From positions 2,949-66,948 of the forward strand of contig JAKQXH010000058.1 of the NCBI GenBank assembly GCA_029561555.1: a stretch of 64,000 bases of DNA. Direction: 5' to 3'. The stretch is from Candidatus Omnitrophota bacterium. Its GTDB lineage: Bacteria > Omnitrophota > Omnitrophia > Omnitrophales > Omnitrophaceae. Positions 5,205 through 59,419 of the stretch are shown here, piece by piece; the first letter of the stretch is position 1, and every line of letters starts with the position of its first letter. The notes under the pieces are model-generated. The model made no database searches and had not been told where the DNA came from. It saw only the letters and a program-made list of their open reading frames with translations. The position numbers and the translations under genes are program-made.

Positions 5205-5493
5205 GATTAAGGGTACAGATTAGCATAACCGGCCGGCCCCAAAAACAATTTTCTTGGGCGGGATCCCCGGCAAAAAAATTTTCATCTCAAACGCGTCAAA
5301 AAAACTTGTAACTTAATCAAAGCGCGTTATCATACCGTTAGGAGAACGATTCATGGAATCGAAGTCCGGCATTCGAAAAATTCTTTCCTCAACCGTTTCA
5401 GCAACTCCGGCGATCGATCTTGGTCTTCGCCCATAAAACCGGCGGCCTCGGCTCTCCCGGGAATTCCGACGGACGCCGACTAGGAGAAAAATT

Positions 5494-9995: not shown

Positions 9996-11624
9996 ATGCT
10001 GAATACCGAAGGGATTACTTTAGCTTACGGGAGCCGGAAGCTTTTCGAAAACGTGAATCTCTCGCTCGCGCCCGAAAATTGTTACGGCCTGATCGGCGCG
10101 AACGGATCCGGAAAATCCACCTTTCTCAAGATCCTCTCGGGAGAGGTGGAACCCTCTCACGGGACCGTCAGCGTCACGCCCGGCTACCGGATCTCCGTCC
10201 TTCAGCAGGATCATTTTCAGTTCGACGAATACCCCGTCCTGACCACCATTCTCATGGGCCACAAAAAACTTTATGAAGTCATGCTGGCGAAAGACGCCGT
10301 TTACGCGAAGCCGGATTTCTCCGAGGCGGACGGCGTCAGGGCCTCGGAGCTTGAAACGGAATTCGCGGAACTCAACGGATGGGAAGCCGAAGCAGAGGCC
10401 GCGAAGCTCCTGAGCGAACTGGGCATCGCCGAAGAATTCCATTCCCGGAAAATGAAAGACCTCGACGGCAGCCAGAAAGTCCGGGTCCTGCTCGCCCAGG
10501 CCCTTTTCGGGATGCCGGATATCCTCCTGCTCGACGAGCCCACCAACCACCTGGACATCGAAACCACCCTGTGGCTCGAAGAATTTCTGTACGAATTCAA
10601 AAACACCGTCGTCGTCGTCTCCCACGACCGCCATTTTCTGGACAGGGTCTGCACGCACATCCTGGACATCGACTTCGGGAGAATCCAGCTCTACACCGGA
10701 AACTGGAGTTTCTGGTACGAGTCAAGCCAGCTCATCCTCCGCCAGAAAACGGATCAAAACAAACAAATCGAGGAAAAGAGGAAAGAACTCCAGACCTTCA
10801 TCATGCGTTTCAGCAACAACGCGTCGAAATCCCGGCAGGCCACGGCGCGGAAAAAACTCCTCGAAAAACTGACGCTCGAGGACATCAAGCCGTCTTCCCG
10901 CCGCACTCCCTACATTTTCTTCAAAGCGGCCCGGGAAGCCGGAAACGACATCCTCACCGCCGAAGACCTCTCGAAAGCCGTCGAAGGCGAGACCTTGTTC
11001 CGGAACGCCTCGTTCCGCGTGGACAAGGGGGAGAAAATCGCGTTCGTCTCCAAAAACACGACGTCCATCACGGCGCTTTTCCGAATCTTAATGAAGGAAG
11101 CCATCCCCGACGGAGGCGCGTTCAAATGGGGCGCATCGACCGGCCGGGCCTATTTCCCGAAAGACAACGCCTCGTTTTTCGACTGCGATTTAAATCTAAT
11201 TGACTGGCTCCGCCAGTATTCGGCGGAGAAAGACGAGAATTTCATCCGGGGATTCCTGGGGAAAATGCTTTTCTCGGGAGACGAAACCTTGAAAAAGGCC
11301 AACGTCCTTTCGGGAGGAGAAAAAGTCCGCTGTCTGTTCTCCCGGATGATGCTCCTGGAAGCCAATGTCCTGCTCTTCGACGAGCCCACCAATCATCTCG
11401 ACCTGGAAGCCATCACCGCCCTCAACGACGGCCTGATCGCTTTCCGGGGAACGATTTTGTTCACCTCGCACGACCATCAATTCGTCCAGACCGTCGCGAA
11501 CCGCATCATCGAAATCACGCCAAACGGCCTGATCGACAAGCAAAACACGACCTACGACGAATACCTTGCCGACCCGCATGTCCGGGAACGCCGGCGGGAG
11601 CTTTATCCGGCGGGAAAGTCGTAA
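9996..11624 (+). CDS. ABC-F family ATPase (two ABC cassettes, no TMD)
   Basis: Two Walker A motifs (GANGSGKST and a degenerate second NBD), two LSGG signatures (LSGSQKVR, LSGGEKVR), and a charged linker. 542 aa. Confidence 0.9.
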   Translation: MLNTEGITLAYGSRKLFENVNLSLAPENCYGLIGANGSGKSTFLKILSGEVEPSHGTVSVTPGYRISVLQQDHFQFDEYPVLTTILMGHKKLYEVMLAKDAVYAKPDFSEADGVRASELETEFAELNGWEAEAEAAKLLSELGIAEEFHSRKMKDLDGSQKVRVLLAQALFGMPDILLLDEPTNHLDIETTLWLEEFLYEFKNTVVVVSHDRHFLDRVCTHILDIDFGRIQLYTGNWSFWYESSQLILRQKTDQNKQIEEKRKELQTFIMRFSNNASKSRQATARKKLLEKLTLEDIKPSSRRTPYIFFKAAREAGNDILTAEDLSKAVEGETLFRNASFRVDKGEKIAFVSKNTTSITALFRILMKEAIPDGGAFKWGASTGRAYFPKDNASFFDCDLNLIDWLRQYSAEKDENFIRGFLGKMLFSGDETLKKANVLSGGEKVRCLFSRMMLLEANVLLFDEPTNHLDLEAITALNDGLIAFRGTILFTSHDHQFVQTVANRIIEITPNGLIDKQNTTYDEYLADPHVRERRRELYPAGKS

Positions 11625-11660
11625 ACAACCAAAAGCTTTTTATTTTTCCAGTAACCTGTC

Positions 11661-11834
11661 CGGCAAATCTGACTGGAGCGAGCTCTCGCAACCGTTTGGA
11701 GCTTGGTCTGGCGCAAAGCGCCAGTCCAAACGGTGAGAGCGCAGACGGTCGGACGCCGCCGGAGCGGACGAACCGGCGGTCGCGGAAGCAGATTTGCCGA
11801 ACTTTATCGCTTGAAATCTCAAAAAACTTTTGAA
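11661..11834. repeat. Structured intergenic repeat, copy 1 (about 174 nt; 11-bp terminal inverted repeat CGGCAAATCTG/CAGATTTGCCG)
   Basis: Aligns without indels to 39401-39574 in the same orientation, with 13 substitutions. Contains nested complementary segments. Sits between convergent genes. Confidence 0.85.
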
Positions 11835-11907
11835 CGATGCCCTAGCATCCTTCGCCCGGAGGGTAGTGAAGGCAAGCATGTTTCTTCTCTGAAGGACTAA
11901 ATCGGCA

Positions 11908-12402
11908 TCAAAACTTTTCCCAGTGGAGGACGTCCTTGAGCGGGCGGTTTTTGGCCTGCTTCACCTCCCCGGCCGGCCAGCCGAGGGAAATCAGGCTCAC
12001 CAGCTTGCAATCCGCCGGCACACCCAGAAGCCTTCCGACGCGCTCCGCGTAAGGTTTCTTGTCCCCCGCCACCCAGCAGGCCCCCAATCCGAAATCCGCG
12101 GCGGCCAGCAGGATATTTTCGGTCGCGGCGCATCCGTCTTCGAGATAATATTTGGTCTCCCGGCAAAACACGGCAATGCAGGCGGAAGCCTGTTTGATGA
12201 ATTCGCCCGTTGTCGCGACCTCACCGAGCCGGACAAGCGCCGGTTTCTCCGTCACGACGACAAATTCCCACGGCTCGACGGCCCGCGCGGTCGGAGCCCG
12301 CCTCCCGGCGTCCACCAACGCTTCCAGCAGTTTCTTCTCGATCGCTTTGCCTTGATATTCCCGAACGCTCGCCCTCGATGAAATCGAATCGCGTGTTTCC
12401 AT
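11908..12402 (-). CDS. Nitroreductase family protein
   Basis: SVREYQGKAIEKKLLEALVDAGRRAPTARAVEPWEFVVV and a C-terminal GLGACWV pattern typical of FMN nitroreductases. Confidence 0.85.
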   Translation of the reverse strand: METRDSISSRASVREYQGKAIEKKLLEALVDAGRRAPTARAVEPWEFVVVTEKPALVRLGEVATTGEFIKQASACIAVFCRETKYYLEDGCAATENILLAAADFGLGACWVAGDKKPYAERVGRLLGVPADCKLVSLISLGWPAGEVKQAKNRPLKDVLHWEKF

Positions 12403-37982: not shown

Positions 37983-38015
37983 TGGGGTCACACCTAAAAA
38001 TCAGGTGTGACCCCA
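37983..38015. promoter_or_regulatory. Perfect palindrome TGGGGTCACACCT-N7-AGGTGTGACCCCA in the divergent mutS/lnt control region (operator or REP-like unit)
   Basis: 13-bp arms and a 7-nt spacer. The left arm contains a candidate mutS -35 (GTGACC, 17 nt from TATAAT on the minus strand). The right arm ends 2 nt before the lnt extended -10. Confidence 0.45.
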
Positions 38016-38017
38016 TA

Positions 38018-38026
38018 TGATATAAT
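38018..38026 (+). promoter_or_regulatory. Candidate extended -10 promoter (TGaTATAAT) predicting a leaderless lnt mRNA
   Basis: The TATAAT ends 6 nt before the ATG at 38033, so the expected start site falls on the A of the ATG. No SD is present. Confidence 0.4.
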
Positions 38027-38032
38027 TCGTTT

Positions 38033-39352
38033 ATGCTAACCCTTATTGCTTGCCTTCTCCTTGTCTCGGGCCTTCAGCCTTTCGGGCTCTGGATGTTGTC
38101 TTATGCCGGTTTTTTCCCGCTCTTTCTTCTGGCGTTTGATCCGAAAATAAAATTTTCAAAGTTGTTTTTTTGCGCGCTCTTTGCGGGCGCCTTTTATTAC
38201 GGAATCTTCTTTTGCTGGCTCACTGCGTACAGCCTCCGGACTTTTTCCTCGGTTTGGCTGATCGTTTCTCCCGTTTTCGCGGTTTATTTCTCGGGAATCC
38301 GCTTGTTCTCAAAAATAAACTTCTCCGCTCTTTTGATCCCGGTTTCGATCGGTTTATGGGCGGCTCTCGAAAAAATATTCGCCCTGACCCCGCTGGGGGC
38401 CGCGGCCCTGCAGCTCCCGTTCTACGGCCCGCCCGCCCTGATGCAAGTCGTCTCCTATGCGGACTTTTGTCTCCTGTCGGGAGCCCTTATGGGCGTCAAT
38501 GCCTCCGCCGCGCTTTTAACCCGGAAGAAATCGCCCGGGGCCTGGTGCGGATTTCTCTTGTCCTCTCTCGTTGTTTCGGGAATTTATTTCCACGGGCATT
38601 TCAGAATGCAAAAGACGGGCGACACAAAAAAATCCGTGAAAGTATCCCTGATTCAGCACAACCTGCCGATCTCGGACGCCTGGCGGGGAAAACACCGGGA
38701 TGAGATCTACCGCCGTTACCGGGAATTGATTTTGAAAGCCGCGGAAGAAGCCCCCGATCTGATCGTTCTCCCCCTTTACACGCTTCCGGACGATCCCCTG
38801 CGCAATCCCGGTTTTTTCGCCGGCCTGGCGCGATCAACAAAAAGCCATATCCTTATCGGAAGTCATATCCCGGAAAAACCCGGCGGGGACCCCGGGAAAA
38901 ATTTTTTGGATGTCGCGATCCTTTACGCGCCGGACGGAAAAATCGCGGGCCTTTATCAGGCGGCACAGGCTCCCCCGTTCCGGGGGATTCCGGAAATAAC
39001 CGGGGACAACGCCGCGCCCCTTAAGGCGTCGTTCGGAACATTCGGCGTCCTTTTGTGCTATGAAGACGTTCTCCCCGGCCCCGCGCGAAAAGCGGTTTCA
39101 TCGGGAGCGGAATGCATCGCGGCCCTGTCCAATCCCGGACATTTCGCGAACACGGATTTGCCTTATTATCACCTGTTTCAGGACAGCCTGAGAGCGATCG
39201 AATCAAACCGGTGGCTCATCCGGGTTTCCCCGAACGGCTATTCCGCAATTGTCGATCCGTCAGGGCGACGGATCAAAAAAAGTGTTCTTCGGGAAGAACA
39301 GGTTCTGACGGGAAAAATCGGCTTGCTTGAAAATACCGCGCAAAACGGCTAA
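38033..39352 (+). CDS. lnt: Apolipoprotein N-acyltransferase
   Basis: N-terminal polytopic region (LVSGLQPFGLWMLSYAGFFPL) plus a C-terminal CN-hydrolase domain (LIVLP..., GVLLCYEDVLP). Confidence 0.85.
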   Translation: MLTLIACLLLVSGLQPFGLWMLSYAGFFPLFLLAFDPKIKFSKLFFCALFAGAFYYGIFFCWLTAYSLRTFSSVWLIVSPVFAVYFSGIRLFSKINFSALLIPVSIGLWAALEKIFALTPLGAAALQLPFYGPPALMQVVSYADFCLLSGALMGVNASAALLTRKKSPGAWCGFLLSSLVVSGIYFHGHFRMQKTGDTKKSVKVSLIQHNLPISDAWRGKHRDEIYRRYRELILKAAEEAPDLIVLPLYTLPDDPLRNPGFFAGLARSTKSHILIGSHIPEKPGGDPGKNFLDVAILYAPDGKIAGLYQAAQAPPFRGIPEITGDNAAPLKASFGTFGVLLCYEDVLPGPARKAVSSGAECIAALSNPGHFANTDLPYYHLFQDSLRAIESNRWLIRVSPNGYSAIVDPSGRRIKKSVLREEQVLTGKIGLLENTAQNG

Positions 39353-39400
39353 GTAACAATGCATAAGTTTTTGTATGCCGAAAACGATGTTCGTCTTGTT

Positions 39401-39574
39401 CGGCAAATCTGACTGGAGCGAGCTCTCGCAACCGTTTGGAGCTTGGTCTGGCGTAAAACGTCAGTCCAAACGGTGAGAGCGCAGGCGGTCGGACGCCGCA
39501 GGAGTGGACGAACCGCCGATCGCGGAAGCAGATTTGCCGAACTTTATGGCCTGAAATTTTAAAAAACTCTTGAA
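39401..39574. repeat. Structured intergenic repeat, copy 2
   Basis: Same orientation as 11661-11834, with 13 substitutions and no indels. Lies between convergent lnt and the clpX-like gene, ending 8 nt from the clpX-like stop codon. Confidence 0.85.
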
Positions 39575-39581
39575 TAGTTAC

Positions 39582-41135
39582 TTAGCCTTTATAGGCCTCT
39601 TTGATCCAGCCGTTCAAGACGGCGTTGGGATTTTCAATCGCTTCTTTGGAAATCAGGAATTCCTTCCCGCCGTTCTTTTCCGAAATCAGGGCGAGTCCGT
39701 AGGCGTAATTCGAAAAAAGTTTCCCGAGAAATTCCGGCGCGTCGCATTCCTTTCCCGCCATTTGTCCCTTGACCGCCTCGCAGGCGGAAGGATCCAAACG
39801 GAGGCGGATGCGGTTTTTCTCGAAAAAATCCTGTTCGAAACGCCGGATCGCCGACACGATCTCATGCTCGACTTCACCTTTCAGAAGCTCTCCGAGCCGC
39901 GCCCCGGGAGACAGGACGCCTTCCTTTGTCAGATCGAATTCCCGGATCTGAGTCGAAGGCAGTTCGTATTTGAAGCCCCTTAAAATTTTCTCGCAAACCG
40001 TGAGAAGCCCGCGGGCGCCGGTCCCTTCCCGGGCGGCTTTCTTCGCGATCTCCCGGAGCGCGTCCTTCTCAAATCTCGCATCGATCCCGTATCCGCGGAA
40101 ATCCGCCGCGTATTGGCGGAGGATCGAGCCTTCCGATTCCGTCAAAATCCGGTACAGATCCTCTTCCGACAACGGATCGCAGACCACCCGCACCGGCAGA
40201 CGTCCGACAAACTCCGGTTCAAATCCGAACGTCACGAAATCCTCCGTCCGGACTTCATTCAGCACATTCCCCGCCCCGGAATGCTCCGCGGGTTTCTGCG
40301 AAAAACCCACGACGCTCTGCCGCAATCTTTTCTCGACGATCGAATTCAGCTCGCCGAACGCCCCGCTCACGATGAAAAGGACGTGACGGGTATTGACCGT
40401 CGCCCGCGCCGTTTTTCCTTTACGCTGTAAATCCATGACCGCTTGAATTTGGGATTGAATATCCATGGGACTTCGGACCGGCACGTCCGTCTCCTCCAGC
40501 AACTTGAGAAGCCCCCGCTGGACCCCGCTCCCGCTCACGTCGCGCCCGATCACGTGAGAAGGCGCCGCGATTTTGTCGATTTCATCGAGATAAACGATCC
40601 CGCATTCCGCAAGCTCCGCGTCCCCGTCCGCCTTGCCGACAAGCTCCCGGACCAGGTCTTCGACATCCCCCCCGACATATCCGGTCTCGCTGAATTTCGT
40701 CGCGTCACCTTTCACGAACGGGACCCCGATCAATTCCGCAAGGCTCCGGACCAGATAAGTCTTCCCGACCCCCGTCGGCCCGAGAATGATCACGTTCTGT
40801 TTGACGTAATGCCGGCATTTCTTCCCGTCCCGGCAAGCCTTGATGTGGTTGTAATGATCGCAAATTACCGTCGCCAGGACTTTTTTCGCCTCATCCTGCT
40901 TGATCACATACCGGTCCAGGTATTTCTTGATGTCTTTCGGCTTGAGATGAAAGTCCAAAACCCGTTTAAACTTTTCTTCTTCCGCTTTCCCCGGCTCTTC
41001 CTTGGGAGCCTCGGCCTTCGGCGGCGTCACCACCGTCGCATGCTCCATGATTTTCTTAAAAGCCTCCGACAGCTCTTTCTGAAGTTCCGCCGGGTCCTTG
41101 TCTTTTTTCTCGCTCATCTCGTATTTCCTTTTCAT
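39582..41135 (-). CDS. ClpX-family AAA+ ATPase lacking the N-terminal zinc-binding domain, with a C-terminal extension
   Basis: LDRYVIKQDEAKKVLA, Walker A GPTGVGKT, pore loop ETGYVGGDVED, Walker B IVYLDEIDK, and a VGF tripeptide at the IGF-loop position. 517 aa, with no C4 zinc ribbon at the N-terminus. Confidence 0.8.
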   Translation of the reverse strand: MKRKYEMSEKKDKDPAELQKELSEAFKKIMEHATVVTPPKAEAPKEEPGKAEEEKFKRVLDFHLKPKDIKKYLDRYVIKQDEAKKVLATVICDHYNHIKACRDGKKCRHYVKQNVIILGPTGVGKTYLVRSLAELIGVPFVKGDATKFSETGYVGGDVEDLVRELVGKADGDAELAECGIVYLDEIDKIAAPSHVIGRDVSGSGVQRGLLKLLEETDVPVRSPMDIQSQIQAVMDLQRKGKTARATVNTRHVLFIVSGAFGELNSIVEKRLRQSVVGFSQKPAEHSGAGNVLNEVRTEDFVTFGFEPEFVGRLPVRVVCDPLSEEDLYRILTESEGSILRQYAADFRGYGIDARFEKDALREIAKKAAREGTGARGLLTVCEKILRGFKYELPSTQIREFDLTKEGVLSPGARLGELLKGEVEHEIVSAIRRFEQDFFEKNRIRLRLDPSACEAVKGQMAGKECDAPEFLGKLFSNYAYGLALISEKNGGKEFLISKEAIENPNAVLNGWIKEAYKG

Positions 41136-43331: not shown

Positions 43332-44972
43332 ATGAGATTGCTTTTGTTTCAACCGCCGGTTCAGGATTTTTACGATACCGACATCCGTCTTCAGCCGATC
43401 GGACTTTGCTATCTCAAGGCCGCCGTCAAAAAGCACCTTCCCGACGTCGAAGTGATCGTGAAAGATTTCCATCAAGGACGGGGGCGCAGGACCATTTCTC
43501 TTCCCGGTGAATTAAAGTATCTTGAAGATTACTACATCGGCCCCGACAAAAGCCCTTTTTCCGCGTTCCATCACTATTATCATTTCGGCGCCTCCTTCGA
43601 AGCCGTCGCGGATGAAGTATCGGAAACAAAACCGGATTTAGTCGGAATCTCATCCCTCTTTTCGCCTTATTACCGCGAAGTCCTGCGCTGCGCGGAAGCC
43701 GTCAAGAAAAAACTGGCCGCTCCCATTCTGATCGGAGGTCCGCACGCCTCGGCCGCTCCGCTTCTCATGCTGGGAAACTCCTGCGTCGATTTCCTGATCC
43801 GGGGAGAAGGCGAAAGGCCTTTGGTCGAATTCCTGCGCGCCTGGACCGGAAACCGGGAATTCGCGGAAGTCCCCAATCTCGGTTTCAAAGAAAACGGAGT
43901 GCCGGTTCTGAATAAAATCGAGCCCAATTGCCCGATCGAAGAAATTCCCCGTCCGGACTTTTCGGATCTTGACCCGGGGAATTACTGTTTTGAAAAACAA
44001 CCCATGAGTTTCATCATCACCTCGAGAGGATGCCCGCATCATTGCAGTTTCTGTTCCGTGCATCTGACTTTCGGCGACCGCTACCGGAAAAGATCCGTCG
44101 AAGATATCGTCGCGGAAATCGAGGCCCGGGTCCGGGAAGGAATACGGGTTTTTGATTTTGAAGACGACAATCTGACTTTCTATATCTCCGAAATGAAAGC
44201 GCTCTGCAAAGAGCTGATCAAGAGATTCTCCGGGAAAGACATCCGCCTCCTGGCCATGAACGGAATTTCTTATCTGAGCCTCGATCCGGAACTTCTGGAA
44301 CTGATGAAGCGCGCCGGCTTTTCCCATCTGAACATTTCACTCGTCAGCACGGAAGAGGGCCTTCTCCGGTCAAACCGGCGGCCTTATTCCGCCGAAAAAT
44401 ACGTCGAAATCGTGCGGGGAGCCGCCCGGCTCGGATTTAAAACGGTTTCCTATCACATCCTCGGGTTCCCCGGAGCCTCTTTGGAATCCATGACCGAAAC
44501 GTTGATCCGGATGGCACAACTTCCGGTCCTGATCGGATCCTCCCCGTTCTATCTCACGCCCCATTCCCCCATCGCGGAGAAATTTCCTCCGCCGGACGAG
44601 GAAGATATCTTCAAATCAAGATTGACCGCCATGGCTATTGAATCGGAACATTTCAAGCGGGAAGACATTTACACATTATTCGTCACCGCCCGAATCCTCA
44701 ATTTCCTTAAGGGGATTCAACTGAACGGAGAAAGCGGCACGCTTCGGGATGTTTTTGAAATACTTGAGAATTCGGATAAACGACAGGCTCTCGGAGGGGA
44801 ACTTCTCGCGAGACTTCTGTCGGAAAGAAAACTTTATGCCGTCATCCGAAACGAACGCCGCCTTTTACCGAAATTCAAAGCGGATCTTTTCTTTAGGATC
44901 TGGGATAAACTCGATTTTATCGCAACTCAAAACAATCAAAAGATATATGGGGTCACACCCCTTTTTGCTTAA
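43332..44972 (+). CDS. B12-binding domain-containing radical SAM protein
   Basis: N-terminal cobalamin-binding-like region (MRLLLFQPP...PIGLCYLKA) and the radical SAM motif ITSRGCPHHCSFCSV. The last 8 codons are formed by a GGGGTCACACCCC repeat arm. Confidence 0.85.
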   Translation: MRLLLFQPPVQDFYDTDIRLQPIGLCYLKAAVKKHLPDVEVIVKDFHQGRGRRTISLPGELKYLEDYYIGPDKSPFSAFHHYYHFGASFEAVADEVSETKPDLVGISSLFSPYYREVLRCAEAVKKKLAAPILIGGPHASAAPLLMLGNSCVDFLIRGEGERPLVEFLRAWTGNREFAEVPNLGFKENGVPVLNKIEPNCPIEEIPRPDFSDLDPGNYCFEKQPMSFIITSRGCPHHCSFCSVHLTFGDRYRKRSVEDIVAEIEARVREGIRVFDFEDDNLTFYISEMKALCKELIKRFSGKDIRLLAMNGISYLSLDPELLELMKRAGFSHLNISLVSTEEGLLRSNRRPYSAEKYVEIVRGAARLGFKTVSYHILGFPGASLESMTETLIRMAQLPVLIGSSPFYLTPHSPIAEKFPPPDEEDIFKSRLTAMAIESEHFKREDIYTLFVTARILNFLKGIQLNGESGTLRDVFEILENSDKRQALGGELLARLLSERKLYAVIRNERRLLPKFKADLFFRIWDKLDFIATQNNQKIYGVTPLFA

Positions 44973-59296: not shown

Positions 59297-59419
59297 GAAG
59301 TCGAAATCTAATCGTCTGCGAAACGAAAGTCAAGCATACATATATTGCTTCCGTTTCGGCATTGCTTATGACAAAATACGCCCGGCTGTTTTTACCGCAA
59401 AAACGGAAGGACTCGAACC

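Follow-up and report, generated by a model that had tools for sequence, protein, structure and literature searches.

A short mobile insertion with a conserved structured core, probably a MITE mobilised in trans, in a small clade of Omnitrophota

The Omnitrophota, a phylum so far uncultivated, have very small cells and compact genomes. The window analysed here is a whole stretch of 64,000 nucleotides from a Candidatus Omnitrophota bacterium, and two of its gaps between convergent genes, one separating an ABC-F gene from a nitroreductase gene and the other an lnt-like gene for an apolipoprotein N-acyltransferase, a CN-hydrolase, from a gene for a ClpX-like AAA+ ATPase, contain the same non-coding unit. 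A sequence-only reading of this DNA had described a two-copy unit of 174 nt with 13 substitutions and no indels in these convergent settings. Alignment of positions 11661-11834 with 39401-39574 reproduced this description, without gaps and with 13 mismatches in 174 nt (92.5% identity), and the corresponding repeat family D1 (178 nt) is the sole long repeat within the window. The perfect 11-bp inverted repeat reported for the unit, CGGCAAATCTG, has four exact occurrences in the window, which are the two arms of copy 1 and of copy 2. Open reading frames do overlap copy 1 and lack a counterpart at copy 2; no compensated coding frame was found in the element, and its substitutions are pair-compensating, not codon-like. 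Mobility genes, already reported as missing, were found neither among the annotated or scanned genes of the window nor at the other loci examined.

Both copies fold strongly on both strands, with minimum free energies (MFE) of -72 to -84 kcal/mol and z-scores of -5.2 to -5.8 against dinucleotide shuffles, none of which (0/200 for either copy on either strand) equalled the native fold. The helices named in the sequence-only reading are present in the MFE structures. No named RNA family had been recognised in the unit, and the Rfam search of the whole window gave no match at the gathering threshold, the best sub-threshold score being 16.5 bits against a threshold of 45; searches with copy 2 and with a longer variant (L003, see below) returned nothing at E <= 1. 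A sigma-70 promoter consensus is absent inside either copy. Neither copy contains an intrinsic terminator site: on one strand the closing stem leads into AACUUUAU, on the opposite strand into AACAAAAAG, and there is no U-tract.

The further copies to be expected of a repeat family do exist. Twelve copies were found at 11 loci of two sister species, 11 of them full-length and one a 5'-truncated fragment (on L009). The window species carries copies 1 and 2 (W1 and W2) and those at L021 and L035; the sister species carries those at L003, L004, L006a, L006b, L009, L010 and L011 together with the L009 fragment. An 18-mer scan of metagenome contigs returned 19 matches, namely 12 chance matches and seven true loci, six of which came from the JGI metagenome Ga0172375 and one (L021) from the window's own sample. 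Profile searches of the Ga0172375 contigs added L006b and the truncated L009 fragment, and a later look-up yielded one further copy of the window species (L035/L038). The Ga0172375 organism is the sister species; its orthologous proteins share 83-90% identity with those of the window's organism. The gaps that hold copies are convergent, tandem and divergent, and the element occurs in both orientations relative to the neighbouring genes.

Wider searches delimit the family. Scanning one genome per GTDB species for the pair of 11-bp repeats gave only two chance matches with unrelated interiors (L001 and L002), and neither a scan of viral contigs nor a plasmid BLAST gave a match. With a covariance model of the core, neither additional copies nor more diverged ones came up in about 390 kb, of which about 55 kb belong to a relative at 76% identity. 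Eight short-read contigs from other samples (L027, L028, L029, L036, L037, L039, L041 and L042) break inside the element, as is expected of a repeat, and contigs of these organisms are thus interrupted by it in several public metagenome assemblies.

The unit first described is a genuine repeat, but its limits were too narrow: homology within the family reaches about 50 nt beyond the left limit and, at the other end, extends as far as a flanking TA. Likewise, the 139-nt core closed by the 11-bp repeat is present, but it is only the inner part of an element of about 230 bp whose true termini lie outside it. The full element measures about 220-230 bp, has the ends AGTAAC...GTTACT and is flanked on each side by a duplicated TA; in an alignment of the family's flanks it is bounded by CTAAGTAAC...GTTACTTAG. 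Its terminal inverted repeats (TIRs) extend into A/T-rich, imperfectly complementary tails of about 45-50 nt around the GC-rich core, and the whole folds into one long hairpin. In the core itself, a closing stem carries two arms, of which the long one is conserved and capped by a variable apical hairpin. [quoted passage not shown]

Copy 2 (39352-39582) is the better preserved example of the two at its ends. Its left target TA (39350-39351) forms, together with position 39352, the TAA stop codon of the N-acyltransferase gene. The left tail (39352-39400, plus strand) starts with the TIR AGTAAC and is about 35% GC (over 39349-39400); it is followed on the same strand by the core (39401-39539, 62% GC), whose helices are those of copy 1 at an offset of +27740, and by the right tail (39540-39582), which ends with the TIR GTTACT and is about 26% GC (over 39540-39585). 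The right duplicated TA occupies 39583-39584, and the AAA+ gene, read on the complement, has its TAA stop codon at 39582-39584.

Copy 1 (11624-11842) has the same plan. The left target TA (11622-11623) and position 11624 make up the TAA stop of the ABC-F gene, and the A/T-rich left tail (11624-11660, plus strand) is degenerate, with about 52% identity to the other left tails. In the core (11661-11799, plus strand, 65% GC), the closing stem pairs 11658-11671 with 11789-11802, the invariant long arm 11682-11700 with 11725-11740 and the covarying apical hairpin 11708-11714 with 11718-11724; the variable second arm spans 11741-11779 and includes a small hairpin (11744-11747 with 11754-11757). The right tail (11800-11842, plus strand) has the degenerate terminus GATGCCC in place of GATTACT, and a TA (11843-11844) follows the position of the family's consensus right end. 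Between this TA and the nitroreductase gene (stop codon 11908-11910) lie 64 extra nucleotides (11845-11908) that have no equivalent at the empty site or in any other copy and are not repeated in about 390 kb; they could represent a second small insertion or a rearrangement scar.

Size variation is concentrated in the second arm. Three copies carry an insert of 99-100 nt there, the full L009 copy carries one of 49 nt, and the L009 fragment keeps the end of the latter; the longest variant, at L003:6128-6516, measures 389 nt. The inserts sit at the tip of the arm and fold into extra hairpins, and neither the 49-nt nor the 100-nt insert is an independent repeat in about 390 kb from these species. 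The tails vary as well: they are shortened in the L021 copy, and the L006b copy is a core without recognisable tails. Profiles of the tails alone found no tail-only elements, which argues against repeated invasion of a pre-existing small MITE by the core.

A few smaller features were seen next to the copies. The L009 fragment (L009:5005-5115), which comprises the right half of the core and the right tail of the variant with the 49-nt insert, abuts the 3' end of an open reading frame of 2238 amino acids. A 44-nt module found at L003:6083-6126 and, inverted, at L004:11331-11374 (98% identical) adjoins the element and has a CTAAG end like it, which suggests a second family of TA-targeting MITEs and nesting of elements. 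The short motif ATATGGGGTCACACCCCTTTTT, a 5-bp hairpin followed by a T-run, occurs at 44943-44966 of the window, as a partial reverse complement at 38004-38018 and at L003:6055-6077, that is, in intergenic DNA and within the inserted block of L003.

The comparison of orthologous sites with sister-species contigs, at 84-90% amino acid identity, permits a direct view of the insertions. At the site of copy 1, the sister-species contigs L024 and L025 (90% amino acid identity) are empty: the ABC-F and nitroreductase genes overlap by the four bases TTAA (L024:11626-11629, L025:11686-11689), the sequence reads ..AAAAACTTAAAACTTTT.., and the window has 285 nt extra relative to it. For copy 2, the empty site was predicted from the flanks beforehand and then found in L026 (87% amino acid identity), where the lnt-like and AAA+ genes overlap at CTAG (L026:11533-11536) in the context ..GGAAAAAC TA GCCTTGATAAG..; the 76% relative is empty at this site too. 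The filled site has the form C-TA-[AGTAAC...GTTACT]-TA-G (..GGC TA [AGTAAC ... GTTACT] TA GCCTTTATAGG..), where the empty CTAG has a single TA. At the third site, that of the L021 copy, the orthologous L006:6478-6481 is empty and the radical-SAM and carbamoyltransferase genes overlap at TTAG. These three stop-stop overlaps, empty in the sister species, are filled in the window species. The reverse case is provided by a divergent-promoter gap, which is filled in the sister species (L003:6128-6516) and empty in the window at about 59336 (59330-59345).

Target-site duplications had been proposed as a feature to look for at the boundaries of the copies, and a duplicated TA is indeed present there. 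The flank pattern TA-[AG..]...[..CT]-TA is found in W2, L011, L006a, L009, L035 and L003; among the filled and empty pairs, both junctions are intact only for copy 2, copy 1 and the L021 copy having one intact TA and a mutated second one. The four orthologous-site comparisons therefore show that the element is a mobile insertion that duplicates TA within YTAR (CTAG, TTAA, CTAA). Of the identities that had been considered for the repeat, a MITE-, ERIC- or Correia-like one is thus upheld by empty orthologous sites, TA duplication, TIRs, unrelated loci and both orientations, and the mobile nature of the element is well supported.

The insertions bear a particular relation to stop codons. In six of nine loci, the duplicated TA and the first base of the element together form the stop codon of a flanking open reading frame (235-569 codons), and at copy 2 the stops of both flanking genes are TAG in the empty and TAA in the filled state. 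The first base of the element (A or G) restores the TAA or TAG stop of the flanking gene and renders the insertion harmless, so that two overlapping convergent genes can be wedged apart without damage. The target is also scarce. CTAG occurs 10 times in the window (at 5480, 11842, 17766, 17883, 37937, 43284, 45027, 45037, 53461 and 56043) against 242 expected, a depletion of about 25-fold, and CTAA and TTAG reach about 0.15 of expectation; the preferred target is therefore nearly confined to gene ends and spacers. Among other short words, TATA is at 0.34 of expectation in the window and GATC is 2.2-fold enriched. Convergent genes in these compact genomes often share the TA of their stop codons, so that most surviving insertions are located on stops. 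The family illustrates a way for a transposon to survive in such a genome, by means of a target that is near-absent from coding DNA and coincides with stops.

The same location raises the question of an effect on transcription. The sequence-only reading had considered a terminator or insulator between convergent genes, and it is conceivable that the element was co-opted as a bidirectional transcription barrier, or as a stabiliser of RNA 3' ends, between formerly overlapping convergent genes without a terminator. The three insertions found only in the window species fall precisely on stop-stop overlaps, each strand folds to about -72 to -84 kcal/mol, and ERIC and Correia elements alter the stability and processing of flanking mRNAs (PMC2229807, PMC10969869). 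However, the terminator or insulator proposal fails the canonical test, since no U-tract follows the hairpin on either strand, and copies also occupy tandem gaps (L004, L009 and L006b) and one divergent promoter gap (L003). The YTAR target and the depletion of CTAG explain the bias in location more simply, and a pure barrier would not require the observed invariance of sequence; co-option as a barrier or stabiliser is accordingly regarded as quite unlikely.

What distinguishes the family is its interior. Mean pairwise identity is 0.92 in the core, 0.68 in the left tail and 0.77 in the right tail, values from a sample of 12 copies in which core identity is somewhat inflated by ascertainment through a core 18-mer. 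Between the species the core is 0.919 identical, and within them 0.912 and 0.915; gene conversion or concerted evolution within genomes was rejected as the cause, identity within species being equal to that between species. In the flanking genes, four-fold sites are 47-65% and second codon positions 91-95% identical between the species. A further comparison is offered by the permease/Pyr_redox site, where both species have a copy in the same orientation (L035:2750-3000 and L040:9080-9390). The cores of these copies are 93.5% identical and their tails 64-70%; they share two otherwise rare states, a TAGG terminus and a T at core alignment column 35, and differ in the type of apical hairpin and in the 49-nt insert. 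The site may reflect ancient shared descent with later conversion, or an insertion hot spot.

Pairing is conserved along with sequence. In 11 copies with the inserts excised, 98.8% of the pair cells are standard pairs, as compared to 33-40% for slid partners, and eight base pairs have changed on both sides; none of 500 shuffles reached the observed values. Four of the compensatory pairs belong to the apical 7-bp hairpin, two to the 4-bp hairpin, one to the long arm and one to the closing stem, and the lower long arm with its internal loops is nearly invariant. For the second arm, the pairing given by RNAalifold contains no compensated pairs; the alternative 4-bp hairpin (columns 90-93 with 100-103) was used because it has two. 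Each non-Watson-Crick cell is a single-transition intermediate, G.T in 15 cases and A.C in 6, a strand preference that is not significant (p = 0.08 by cells; 10 versus 4 distinct states, p = 0.18).

Taken together, a core about 92% identical between species, as against four-fold sites and tails that are near neutral, and eight compensated pairs show that purifying selection acts on the sequence of the core as well as on its pairing. Conservation so far above neutral suggests a function, and two roles may be envisaged: the core would either be needed in cis for propagation or have been recruited as a stable 3'-end hairpin by the flanking transcripts. Part of the conservation could stem from palindrome-templated mutation and recent spread between the species. 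The earlier suggestion of a family of small structured RNAs is not supported as the primary identity, given the lack of promoter, terminator and Rfam match and the mixed orientation, but compensatory changes and conservation far above neutral do indicate that the structure matters.

A stronger version of this suggestion sees in the GC-rich core a functional module of structured RNA or single-stranded DNA kept by selection, for which the A/T-rich, TA-duplicating tails are a mere vehicle. Between species the core matches second codon positions in conservation (0.92 versus 0.91-0.95) next to tails that are near neutral, a difference repeated in the permease/Pyr_redox copies; helices 2-4 and the internal loops hardly vary, the apical and 4-bp hairpins change by compensated or wobble steps only, and the second arm takes expansions at its tip, like structured RNAs. 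Such a module would nevertheless have neither promoter, terminator nor Rfam family, would be antisense to the flanking genes in three tandem-gene gaps and would show no clear preference for either strand (15 G.T versus 6 A.C, p = 0.08). The family, moreover, is present only in two sister species and absent from the 76% relative, and template switching can also yield compensatory changes in short palindromes without selection, so that a core with the tails as mere vehicle seems rather unlikely. A related proposal is put forward tentatively, as a possibility well short of an even chance: the core may be a selectively maintained new non-coding RNA or single-strand DNA signal on a TA-duplicating MITE, delivered onto stop codons, that acts on flanking transcripts or serves as the cis determinant of an unrecognised mobilisation. 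If its conservation does reflect function, the family would make it possible to study how a MITE disseminates a structured module of RNA or DNA.

The paired changes also call to mind hairpins that move as single-stranded DNA. In this scenario the core would be a REPIN- or PATE-like hairpin mobilised by a Y1/HUH transposase (RAYT or the TnpA of IS200/IS605) and the tails would be incidental, in keeping with compensatory changes that preserve hairpin pairing as in REPINs (PMC3116915). The better conservation of the core than of the flanks, the L006b copy with its core alone and the slight surplus of G.T intermediates relative to A.C on one strand point the same way. Yet what moved at copy 2 was the entire element of 231 nt, which has symmetric termini and produced a TA duplication. 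Elements of the IS200/IS605 type have neither of these features. In addition, the element has no 20-40-nt REP units tagged with GTAG or CGTC, the interior of its core is not a symmetric doublet, and no RAYT or TnpA gene was found in the DNA examined, all of which makes single-strand mobilisation of the core very improbable. On the same grounds, membership in the REP/REPIN-RAYT systems (asymmetric core with two different arms, TA duplication) and derivation from IS200/IS605 as a PATE, which would have asymmetric ends with subterminal hairpins and neither TIR nor TSD (target-site duplication), were rejected, the termini being symmetric and a TA duplication present.

Two further candidates were set aside. 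IS5-group elements make 4-bp CTAG repeats (PMC9241763), and a MITE of this group does not agree with flanks that read CTA|A...T|TAG instead of CTAG...CTAG and with an empty site that is a single CTAG. An IS110-type bridge RNA does not fit either, the flanks beyond YTAR differing among copies and no loop of the core being, by inspection, complementary to the ends of the element.

The likely identity of the repeat first noticed is, then, that of the conserved inner part of a non-autonomous bacterial MITE in a small Omnitrophota clade, with a YTAR target, mobilisation in trans and a constrained core. In ordinary MITE families the termini are the best conserved parts, and here it is the interior instead. 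The element would be mobilised in trans by a DDE transposase of the cut-and-paste kind, belonging to the IS630/Tc1-mariner type. This is probably the most economical account because the IS630 family duplicates TA and IS630 prefers CTAG; a transposase with matching ends was not found among the annotated and scanned genes in about 390 kb from the two species, including open reading frames of unannotated loci. No description of MITEs in Omnitrophota was found in the literature searched.

Several known systems invite comparison. Bacterial MITEs are shorter than 200 bp and have TIRs, TA at their termini, TSDs and transcripts with long stem-loops (PMC2229807; for their anatomy see also PMC10969869). 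The presumed partner family is represented by IS630 and ISY100 of the Tc1-mariner superfamily, which likewise duplicate a TA target on insertion (PMC2170065); IS630 prefers the TA in CTAG (PMC2170065, citing Tenzen & Ohtsubo 1991). Both are, however, autonomous elements of about 1-1.2 kb that encode a transposase, while the Omnitrophota element encodes nothing. RUP, the pneumococcal MITE ascribed to IS630-Spn1, is close in kind: short, non-coding and mostly intergenic, with TIRs, TA insertion and a stem-loop, and a transposase of the IS630 family is presumed to move it in trans (PMC2229807). It differs in being 107 bp long, A/T-rich throughout and endowed with TIRs that match a known IS, whereas the Omnitrophota element has about 230 bp and a branched, GC-rich core of 139 nt that is better conserved than its ends, and no partner IS was found for it.

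The ERIC/IRU sequences of enterobacteria are imperfect palindromes of about 127 bp with TA ends and 3' or intercistronic sites; they too have size variants through internal insertions, are conserved across species and form an RNA hairpin that affects mRNA stability (PMC2229807). There is no sequence relationship to them, and ERIC shows little recent mobility, in contrast to the filled and empty differences between the Omnitrophota sister species. REPIN-RAYT systems share extragenic hairpins, pairing kept by compensatory changes and vertical persistence in a lineage (PMC3116915), but REPINs are inverted doublets of 20-40-nt REPs without TSD and depend on a single-copy Y1 transposase, as opposed to the symmetric TIRs and TA duplication of the Omnitrophota element.

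The Correia or NEMIS elements of Neisseria offer a further likeness, with TA at the termini, a TSD, long-hairpin transcripts and subtypes that arise by internal indels (PMC2229807, PMC10969869). They often lie beside genes and influence the transcripts next to them by way of RNase III cleavage and of promoters (PMC2229807, PMC10969869). They belong to a different phylum and have no evident sequence similarity to the present family; Correia elements are marked by TIRs of 24-26 bp, by an IHF site and by promoters that point outward, features not seen in the Omnitrophota element, and they exceed 100 copies per genome, as compared to about a dozen copies found across two Omnitrophota species. By analogy of features, with no membership claimed, the Omnitrophota element may work like a Correia element. 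The family is best classed as a new bacterial MITE, restricted to its lineage.
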